Source: Escherichia coli (lineage in GTDB: Bacteria > Pseudomonadota > Gammaproteobacteria > Enterobacterales > Enterobacteriaceae). Taken from it: 64,000 nt of DNA. Positions 25,381 through 25,760 of the stretch are shown here, piece by piece. The notes under the pieces are model-generated. The model searched no databases and was not told where the DNA came from. It was given only the letters and a program-made list of their open reading frames with translations. A program made the translations under genes and the position numbers. The stretch is from NCBI RefSeq assembly GCF_003334305.1, contig NZ_QOWS01000007.1; one strand, given 5' to 3'. Within the stretch, counting starts at the first letter, position 1, and the number at the start of each line of letters is the position of its first letter.

Positions 25381-25760
25381 AACAACCTCTCTTATAATTA
25401 TGGGTATTCTACGGAAACAATATACCGTGGTGAAGCTAATTTACTCGATTGCTGCGATGACTACCTCCGGGGGACAAACCTTATGTAAATACTATGGTCC
25501 TGCGGTGATAATTTGTATGTGATACACAGCAACATTTCGAGATATTCATACGGCATCTAATACTGATTTAATTCTGGTTAAAATACAGACAGATAACAAG
25601 ATGAATATTCTTAATGTTTACGTTAAAAATGTTTAATATTATTTAATAGTTGTTAATTTGAATACTTCGATAATGTTATATTTCCTGATAATCATTTGCA
25701 GGCAAAATGTTTTCACCCTTAAATGAGTATTTATTCTCATAAATCGAAAAAGGATTCATT

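Follow-up and report, generated by a model that had tools for sequence, protein, structure and literature searches.

Class II promoters, at which CRP is centred near −41.5 beside a recognizable −10 element, are known from galP1 and melR and from the synthetic promoter CC(−41.5). Constitutive RpoD promoters and H-NS sites have been catalogued in the type-A divergent spacers of Shimada 2014 (PMC3946193). In that work, the spacer between ypfM and yffB of Escherichia coli is bound by RpoD holoenzyme in genomic SELEX in vitro, and is also marked for H-NS by genomic SELEX, again in vitro. The same study predicts a yffB promoter of the form TTCATA-16-TTTAAT.

YpfM, one of the two flanking gene products, is a 19-residue protein of uncharacterized function that is conserved across Enterobacteriaceae. 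Its transcript has been seen in Salmonella, where STnc250 is the small ypfM mRNA, which runs at ~220 nt on a Northern blot and is enriched 4-fold with Hfq (Sittka et al. 2008). In targeted mass spectrometry, YpfM and AzuC were the two small proteins whose detection was limited to one and the same minimal-medium condition.

A CRP ChIP-seq study of EAEC 042 (Microbiology 2025, PMC12360894), which we found by a full-text search with a 16-mer from the locus, lists the target TGTGATACACAGCAAC with a peak centre at 2833992 and a score of 209 (Table 1). The target was assigned to gene 2670, a conserved hypothetical protein, at a distance of +230.5. The authors described its site as missing from MG1655 and as lying outside regulatory regions, and they report numerous CRP sites at which transcription is unaffected.

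Here, we analyze the ypfM–yffB spacer within a 64,000-nt stretch of E. coli DNA (hereafter the window), whose coordinates are used throughout. We consider it likely that the spacer is a divergent control region for ypfM and yffB, with tandem ypfM promoters (P1 and P2), CRP acting at P2, and H-NS on the yffB half.

Results

Composition and conservation of the spacer

The spacer and its neighboring genes are located as follows.

22109-25222, plus strand: acrD
25321-25380, minus strand: ypfM, 19 aa, MIERELGNWKDFIEVMLRK
25381-25760: the entire 380-bp spacer, separating ypfM (minus strand) from yffB (plus strand)
25761-26117, plus strand: yffB

Gene order at the locus is acrD, ypfM, yffB, dapE, ypfN, and ypfH. 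An earlier reading of the sequence alone had described an AT-rich region of about 380 bp, and this region is real: its coordinates are exactly those of the spacer, which has a GC content of 0.311 against 0.529 for the 64-kb window. This is the lowest-GC 380-bp stretch of the 64 kb (0.055% of all 380-bp windows are equally low), and windows of that size with GC ≤0.36 form a single block, at the spacer. A sub-tract at 25551-25680 falls to 0.223. The same sequence-only reading called the region rich in A/T tracts and short repeats. AT-richness is borne out, but homopolymer tracts of at least 4 nt are few (five in the spacer). The repeats do not survive inspection; we find four two-copy families of direct repeats (10 to 17 nt) and a few weak inverted pairs, which is the chance level for AT-rich DNA. 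Mobile-element features, and repeats beyond these, are absent from the spacer.

Elsewhere in the window, GC ≤0.30 over 200 bp occurs only at 10356-10555, a stretch flanked by minus-strand open reading frames (ORFs) of 135 aa (9983-10390) and 759 aa (10611-12890).

The spacer is single-copy and is found at ≥90% identity in all 5426 of 5426 complete E. coli genomes. Identity is ≥95% in every complete E. coli record except one, and coverage of the spacer query falls below 80% in 14 of the 5426. Relative to MG1655, the spacer has two base differences (25479 and 25510) and no indels. K-12 coordinates therefore transfer exactly (window position = NC_000913.3 position minus 2565486). Over the longer stretch 25223-25790, there are 5 base differences and 0 indels from MG1655, such that the DNA is close to K-12 but not identical.

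For comparison across genera, we collected 80 enterobacterial loci via YffB, together with one Salmonella locus. The ypfM–yffB arrangement is kept in more than 70 of the collected enterobacterial loci, with a spacer length of 202 to 1041 bp. Conservation divides the spacer: the ypfM-proximal 165 bp are conserved in blocks, while the yffB-proximal tract is poorly conserved. The region had previously been tied to yffB as a whole. This attribution stands for the yffB-proximal half, but the conserved half (25381-25546) belongs to ypfM by distance. Conservation does not extend to the small ORFs of the spacer (31 to 75 aa, and an 11-codon upstream ORF at 25708), and codon periodicity is absent from the conserved blocks. 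In Kosakonia and relatives (five loci), the spacer is 713 to 1041 bp long and contains an extra plus-strand ORF of 143 to 145 aa; this ORF is absent from E. coli.

Predicted promoter P1 of ypfM

The elements next to ypfM are the following.

25434-25429, minus strand: −35 element of P1, TTCACC, separated by a 17-nt spacer from the −10 element
25411-25406, minus strand: −10 element of P1, TAGAAT
25381-25399, minus strand: P1 leader of ypfM, 19 nt, with the Shine-Dalgarno sequence GAGAGG (25386-25391) and an AAU/AAG-rich stretch
25438-25468, no strand assigned: block B, conserved, upstream of the P1 −35 element
25453-25468, no strand assigned: weak CRP-like candidate TGCGA-N6-CCTCC within block B

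P1 is the sole sigma-70-like match in a promoter scan of the spacer, with 9 of 12 consensus matches, and the ypfM promoter hexamers given by Shimada 2014 (PMC3946193) are identical to it. In an alignment of 44 sequences, T1, A2, and T6 of the −10 hexamer are invariant, and a TAnnnT hexamer is present in all 62 of 62 species. TTCACA is the majority form of the −35 element across species. P1 thus has the hexamers, the 16- to 18-bp spacing, and the TAnnnT motif of a sigma-70 promoter, with a predicted start. Judging from the position of the −10 element, this start would be at 25399. The resulting leader is near-invariant in 44 to 62 enterobacterial species, and is 19 nt long in 50 of 62. We found no measured ypfM start for E. 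coli in the literature, and ypfM does not appear in the portions of the SMRT-Cappable-seq table that were searched.

The CRP-like candidate in block B is centred −61.5 from the predicted P1 start. In a fixed frame, TCACA or TCGCA is present at this site in 26 of 62 species and GGAGG in 15 of 62. That block B holds a second CRP-like site is speculative.

Block A and predicted promoter P2 of ypfM

Farther from ypfM lies a second group of elements.

25515-25536, no strand assigned: CRP site, with its core TGTGATACACAGCAAC at 25518-25533 and its centre at 25525.5
25537-25546, no strand assigned: conserved A/T-rich flank just upstream of the CRP site, reading TTTCAAAAT on the minus strand in most genera
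25496-25491, minus strand: predicted −10 element of P2, CATAGT
25485/25484, minus strand: predicted P2 start at C-A, giving a 104-nt leader (the element as a whole spans 25484-25496)

On the plus strand, the sequence of block A (25518-25533) is TGTGA-N6-GCAAY. In 57 of 83 loci, 134 to 152 nt separate it from the ypfM ATG; the corresponding figure for the yffB ATG is 208 to 698 nt, a threefold range. Because the distance to ypfM is constant and that to yffB is variable, block A belongs to ypfM. Read on the minus strand, it contains TCACA in 60 of 62 species, and RTTGC is found equally often (60 of 62). Of the 62 species, 55 have 21 nt and 7 have 20 nt of variable sequence between TCACA and a −10-like hexamer. 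This hexamer is CATAGT in 44 of 62 species and CATATT in 16 of 62, with A(−11) and T(−7) conserved over ~60 species. The C and A that occupy the sixth and seventh positions after it are each ~80% conserved. No −35-like hexamer is found for P2 at a spacing of 16 to 19 bp.

Placing the −10 hexamer at −12 to −7 puts the start at 25484 and the centre of the CRP site at −41.5. Relative to this predicted start, the site would thus have class II geometry, with a centre near −41.5 and a weak or absent −35 element. The CRP half-site proximal to the promoter is perfect, while the distal half (RTTGC/GCAAY) keeps 2 of 5 consensus bases. The conserved GTGA core of block A is a CRP-type half-site. As a 22-mer, the site matches the consensus at 13 of 22 positions, which is not above the window background, and TGTGA-N6-GCAA is expected by chance ~0.9 times per 64 kb. 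The strictly conserved, non-consensus TTGC could be read by a second factor. The A/T-rich flank at 25537-25546 has high information content in an anchored logo, and may provide an alpha-CTD or UP-like contact or bind a further factor.

The size of the Salmonella transcript provides an independent comparison. Transcripts of 227 nt from P2 and 146 nt from P1 are predicted for Salmonella, against ~220 nt on the published Northern blot. This supports P2, not P1, to the extent that one approximate size can.

Other readings of block A were considered and set aside. The spacing is wrong, by eye, for sigma-54 and for LexA. On the plus strand, a class II partner (TCTAAT, 25556-25561) has no A(−11) and is found only in the Escherichia/Citrobacter/Salmonella group. 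An FNR site (TTGAT-N4-ATCAA) is matched at 8 of 10 positions in E. coli, but other genera have GTGAC-N4-TGCAA (6/10), with a conserved first base that is the G of CRP-type sites.

CRP occupancy in EAEC 042

The ChIP-seq target of EAEC 042 maps to this locus. Its position in NC_017626.1 is 2834036-2834051, with ypfM (2833839-2833898, minus strand) on one side and yffB (start 2834279) on the other. The identical 16-mer is present in MG1655, at 2591004-2591019, and in the window. CRP thus occupies this sequence in vivo, as detected by ChIP-seq in one strain (042). Its assignment to a promoter would follow from the sequence context described above. The reported peak centre corresponds to window position 25474, which is 51 bp from the CRP site and between block B and the main site.

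The published distance points to an ORF that overlaps ypfM on the other strand.

25295-25522, plus strand: 75-aa ORF with a TTG start (= EC042_2670), antisense to ypfM

Counted from the start of this ORF (25295), "+230.5 from gene 2670" is 25525.5. EC042_2670 is almost certainly a spurious ORF call. The CRP peak was scored as intragenic because this ORF is annotated in 042 and ypfM is missing from the annotation.

The yffB-proximal half

The yffB side of the spacer contains the following elements.

25551-25668, no strand assigned: AT-rich tract, ~22% GC and variable in length, probable H-NS-binding DNA upstream of the yffB promoter
25669-25674, plus strand: yffB −10 element GATAAT, E. coli-specific, fitting a start at 25680
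25674-25682, plus strand: conserved extended −10 element TGtTATATT, overlapping GATAAT
25680-25760, plus strand: 5′ untranslated region (UTR) of yffB-dapE-ypfN, 81 nt, with the Shine-Dalgarno sequence AAGGA at 25750-25754

The searched portions of the SMRT-Cappable-seq data list a start at 2591166 (NC_000913.3) for the transcript of b2471, b2472, and b4547 (Yan et al. 2018). This is window position 25680, 6 nt past GATAAT. The yffB promoter therefore has a mapped 5′ end and a −10 element at the right distance. Exact copies of its conserved motif, TGTTATATT, occur in 30 of 83 loci. In Salmonella, the published yffB start, at −97, falls 7 nt downstream of TGtTATATT in the one Salmonella locus that was fetched. 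The mapped E. coli start (25680) and the start expected from the conserved extended −10 element (~25689) are ~9 nt apart. The yffB promoter predicted by Shimada 2014 corresponds to 25545-25572 and disagrees with the mapped start. The same searched portions contain a second start, 2591560, for a dapE-ypfN transcript (Yan et al. 2018); it corresponds to window position 26074 (plus strand), inside yffB and 47 nt upstream of dapE. Only 3 nt separate the yffB stop from the dapE ATG (26117, 26121).

Column identity in the AT-rich tract is ~40%. Its AT-richness is nevertheless kept across genera, with a mean GC of 0.37 in the yffB-proximal tract against 0.56 in the adjacent coding sequence. In E. coli, the tract is 75 to 78% AT, and its 8/10 match to the H-NS nucleation motif is at chance level (reached by 58% of shuffles).

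The yffB leader folds at −11.0 kcal/mol against −14.3 ± 3.2 in shuffled sequences (z = +1.0). The Salmonella leader likewise folds more weakly than its shuffles (z = +1.4). We thus find neither a stable or conserved fold nor a terminator in the yffB 5′ UTR.

E. coli strain 81 (NZ_CP088131.1) has lost narQ, acrD, ypfM, and the ypfM-proximal half of the spacer, and an IS1A copy adjoins aegA, with a junction equivalent to window position ~25551. The strain keeps only the 210-bp AT-rich half (25551-25760) upstream of yffB-dapE, an arrangement that is at least compatible with a yffB promoter located wholly inside 25551-25760.

Other regulators reported at the locus

A Salmonella ChIP-seq peak for MarA has been reported for the ypfM–yffB spacer; the protein was over-expressed and epitope-tagged, and the called motif was weak (P = 3.7e-5). 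Anchored on the authors' motif, which has one mismatch in the Salmonella locus of our set (L082), the peak centre is at ~2219 in that locus. It adjoins block A (2222-2239) and the P2 region, and the called marbox is 56 bp away.

In an anaerobic fur mutant of Salmonella, yffB expression is raised 2.6-fold, and a Fur box has been predicted at −35 to −18 from its ATG. This microarray result and predicted box are best treated as a lead only. In the E. coli spacer, the best match to a Fur box is 13/19, on the plus strand at 25681 and again on the minus strand at 25625, a score that 24% of shuffles of the AT-rich tract reach, i.e., chance level. At 25687-25696 (+8 to +17 of the yffB transcript), GATAATCATT matches the Fur core at 10 of 10 positions and the box at 13 of 19 overall, again at chance level. 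At 25728-25748, ATTTATTC is kept between E. coli and Salmonella and overlaps the published predicted Salmonella box; it too is at chance level. Consensus scans of the AT-rich DNA for Fur, the CRP 22-mer, H-NS, FNR, ArgR, and PurR gave only chance-level matches.

The small RNA (sRNA) SdsR represses a yffB::gfp fusion in Salmonella, and only the full-length sRNA is active. Unrestricted duplex predictions between SdsR and the yffB leader are not significant. The best predicted pairing, itself marginal, involves nt 22-30 of SdsR (UUAAUGCCA) and UGGCAUUAA in codons 5 to 8 of Salmonella yffB (L082, 2513-2523). Such a pairing would be consistent with the published loss of regulation with processed SdsR+31. 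The E. coli counterpart, CGGCAUCAA (window ~25773-25783), has two mismatches, and its predicted pairing with SdsR is weaker than that of Salmonella.

Small RNA candidates and the ypfM transcript

The sequence-only reading had raised a complex promoter, H-NS-bound DNA, and an unannotated sRNA as possible contents of the region. The complex promoter is confirmed in kind, with at least three promoters on two strands (some of them predicted) and a CRP site occupied in vivo in EAEC 042. H-NS binding agrees with the published in vitro SELEX mark, while the motif match adds nothing above chance. For the sRNA we find no support: there is no Rfam match, no terminator, no pair conserved by RNAalifold, and a folding z of +1.0 for the yffB leader. 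That reading was correct in seeing no confident terminator-flanked sRNA unit, as no terminator-like hairpin was found inside the spacer.

The covariance-model search that it had proposed returned nothing meaningful inside 25381-25760. At E values up to 10, a search of 25000-26000 gave only noise matches within the spacer, and at the gathering score there was no Rfam match in the 20- to 30-kb part of the window. The spacer thus has none of the marks of an sRNA gene that we looked for (an intrinsic terminator, a conserved structure, or an Rfam match). RNAalifold on 44 species gave 0 conserved pairs in the conserved ypfM half. This includes the variable, GC-rich 25461-25490, where a covarying hairpin had been suspected by eye. 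Without conserved pairing, the conserved blocks would act as DNA.

Outside the spacer, STnc250 (RF01409) matches 25222-25341 on the minus strand with 37.3 bits (E = 1.9e-5), below the gathering score (42 bits). The match spans the final codons of ypfM together with its 3′ UTR and the terminator; at one position, E. coli carries an insert of 37 nt against 13 nt in the model. By synteny and the literature, the match is the 3′ part of the ypfM mRNA. A perfect 12-bp hairpin lies between A-runs and T-runs at 25227-25262 and is, by its sequence, a bidirectional terminator common to the convergent acrD and ypfM. A second hairpin, of 11 bp, lies just within the ypfM 3′ UTR (25273-25297).

Discussion

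We propose that 25381-25760 is a shared, back-to-back control region that would drive ypfM leftward and the yffB-dapE-ypfN operon rightward, and that it consists of two functionally different halves: a conserved, ypfM-proximal 165 bp and an AT-rich, yffB-proximal 210 bp. On the ypfM side, P1 would be a self-sufficient sigma-70 promoter with a 19-nt leader. Approximately 85 bp upstream of P1, P2 would depend on an activator, having a −10 element without a −35 element. There, cAMP-CRP bound to TGTGA-N6-GCAAC at −41.5 would recruit RNA polymerase by the class II mechanism. When glucose is scarce, P2 would make a longer ypfM mRNA with a leader of ~104 nt. On the yffB side, AT-rich composition would be maintained while the sequence is free to drift. 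H-NS on this half probably damps transcription, and the half ends in the yffB promoter and its unstructured 81-nt leader.

Most likely, then, the conserved ypfM half holds a class II CRP-dependent promoter that has been overlooked or mis-assigned in the literature. The stronger statement, that ypfM is a core member of the cAMP-CRP regulon via an ancient class II P2, and that the EAEC 042 peak is this P2, mis-assigned, is one that we favor with some reserve. We found no CRP experiment on ypfM, and no crp-mutant expression data for it, in the literature.

It is possible, though rather unlikely, that CRP binds here without transcriptional effect, whether by accident or in "chromosome management," such that P1 is the sole ypfM promoter and conservation of block A serves another protein, either MarA/SoxS-type or unknown. 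The ChIP-seq authors did place the site outside regulatory regions and describe many CRP sites that have no effect (PMC12360894). The distal half-site departs from the consensus but is strictly conserved, the MarA peak centre adjoins block A, and P1 by itself looks like a competent promoter. However, the invariant 21-nt spacing, A(−11), T(−7), and the C-A start are hard to explain over ~60 species without a promoter. The GTGA core is that of a CRP-type half-site, and the Salmonella transcript has the size predicted for P2 rather than P1. The MarA peak, in turn, comes from an over-expressed, epitope-tagged protein with a weak called motif.

Readings that place an RNA element or foreign DNA in the spacer are far less probable. 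An independent, unannotated sRNA might be expected from a long, AT-rich spacer whose neighboring ypfM transcript was first catalogued as an Hfq-bound sRNA candidate, STnc250. We consider it very improbable: 25381-25760 contains no Rfam match or terminator-like hairpin, conserved base pairs number 0, the folding z-score is positive, and the AT-rich half is only ~40% conserved and varies in length. STnc250 itself lies outside the spacer, and the plus-strand entry in the searched part of the SMRT-Cappable-seq data is the operon start only. A structured, cis-regulatory yffB leader at 25680-25760 (a riboswitch, thermometer, or attenuator with a leader peptide) has just as little to recommend it. 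A leader of 81 to 97 nt does exceed the average, SdsR acts on yffB posttranscriptionally in Salmonella, and a Fur-dependent expression change comes with a predicted box close to the Salmonella ATG. Against this, predicted folding is weaker than in shuffles for both E. coli and Salmonella, conservation is poor outside the Shine-Dalgarno sequence, the small leader ORFs are not conserved, and neither a terminator nor an Rfam match is present. The best predicted SdsR pairing also falls in codons 5 to 8, outside the leader. The least credible reading of all is that the AT-rich tract is left over from horizontally acquired DNA, silenced by H-NS and otherwise without a role. Very low GC (22%), the H-NS SELEX mark, poor conservation, variable length, and an extra ORF in some genera would fit a remnant. 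Nonetheless, the tract is single-copy, is present in all 5426 E. coli genomes, and has no mobile-element features or repeats. It holds the mapped yffB start, and across Enterobacteriaceae one finds both the ypfM–yffB gene order and an AT-rich tract next to yffB.

As a spacer, the region is ordinary, since RNA polymerase and H-NS binding and the yffB start were already in the literature, and no new kind of biology follows from it. A divergent control region with a CRP-dependent P2 would, however, provide the first concrete and testable hypothesis for when YpfM is made, namely upon catabolite de-repression. Our analysis also corrects the published label of the CRP target as strain-specific and non-regulatory. 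More generally, ChIP-seq peaks can appear intragenic when tiny genes are left out of an annotation.

Comparison with known systems

The type-A divergent spacers of Shimada 2014 (PMC3946193) include the ypfM–yffB spacer, with the hexamers of P1 and the H-NS mark, but without P2 or a CRP site. STnc250 (RF01409) of Salmonella corresponds to the neighboring transcript, a coding mRNA rather than an sRNA, to which the spacer supplies only promoter(s) and leader.

Among genes for tiny proteins, azuC is reportedly activated by CRP. Both azuC and ypfM would then be under catabolite control, and the shared detection of their products is circumstantial.

The closest parallel is with class II CRP promoters (galP1, melR, and the synthetic CC(−41.5)). 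P2 differs from these in its distal half-site, which is GCAAY rather than TCACA, and in that its start and CRP dependence are predicted. A distal half-site of the GCAAY type is also found in the CRP sites of araBAD and malT, and the ara CRP-site sequence is present in pBAD vectors. With class II promoters, P2 shares the TGTGA half-site, the 6-bp spacer, and, from its predicted start, the −41.5 centre. It also shares the absent −35 element, a recognizable −10 element, and CRP occupancy in vivo.
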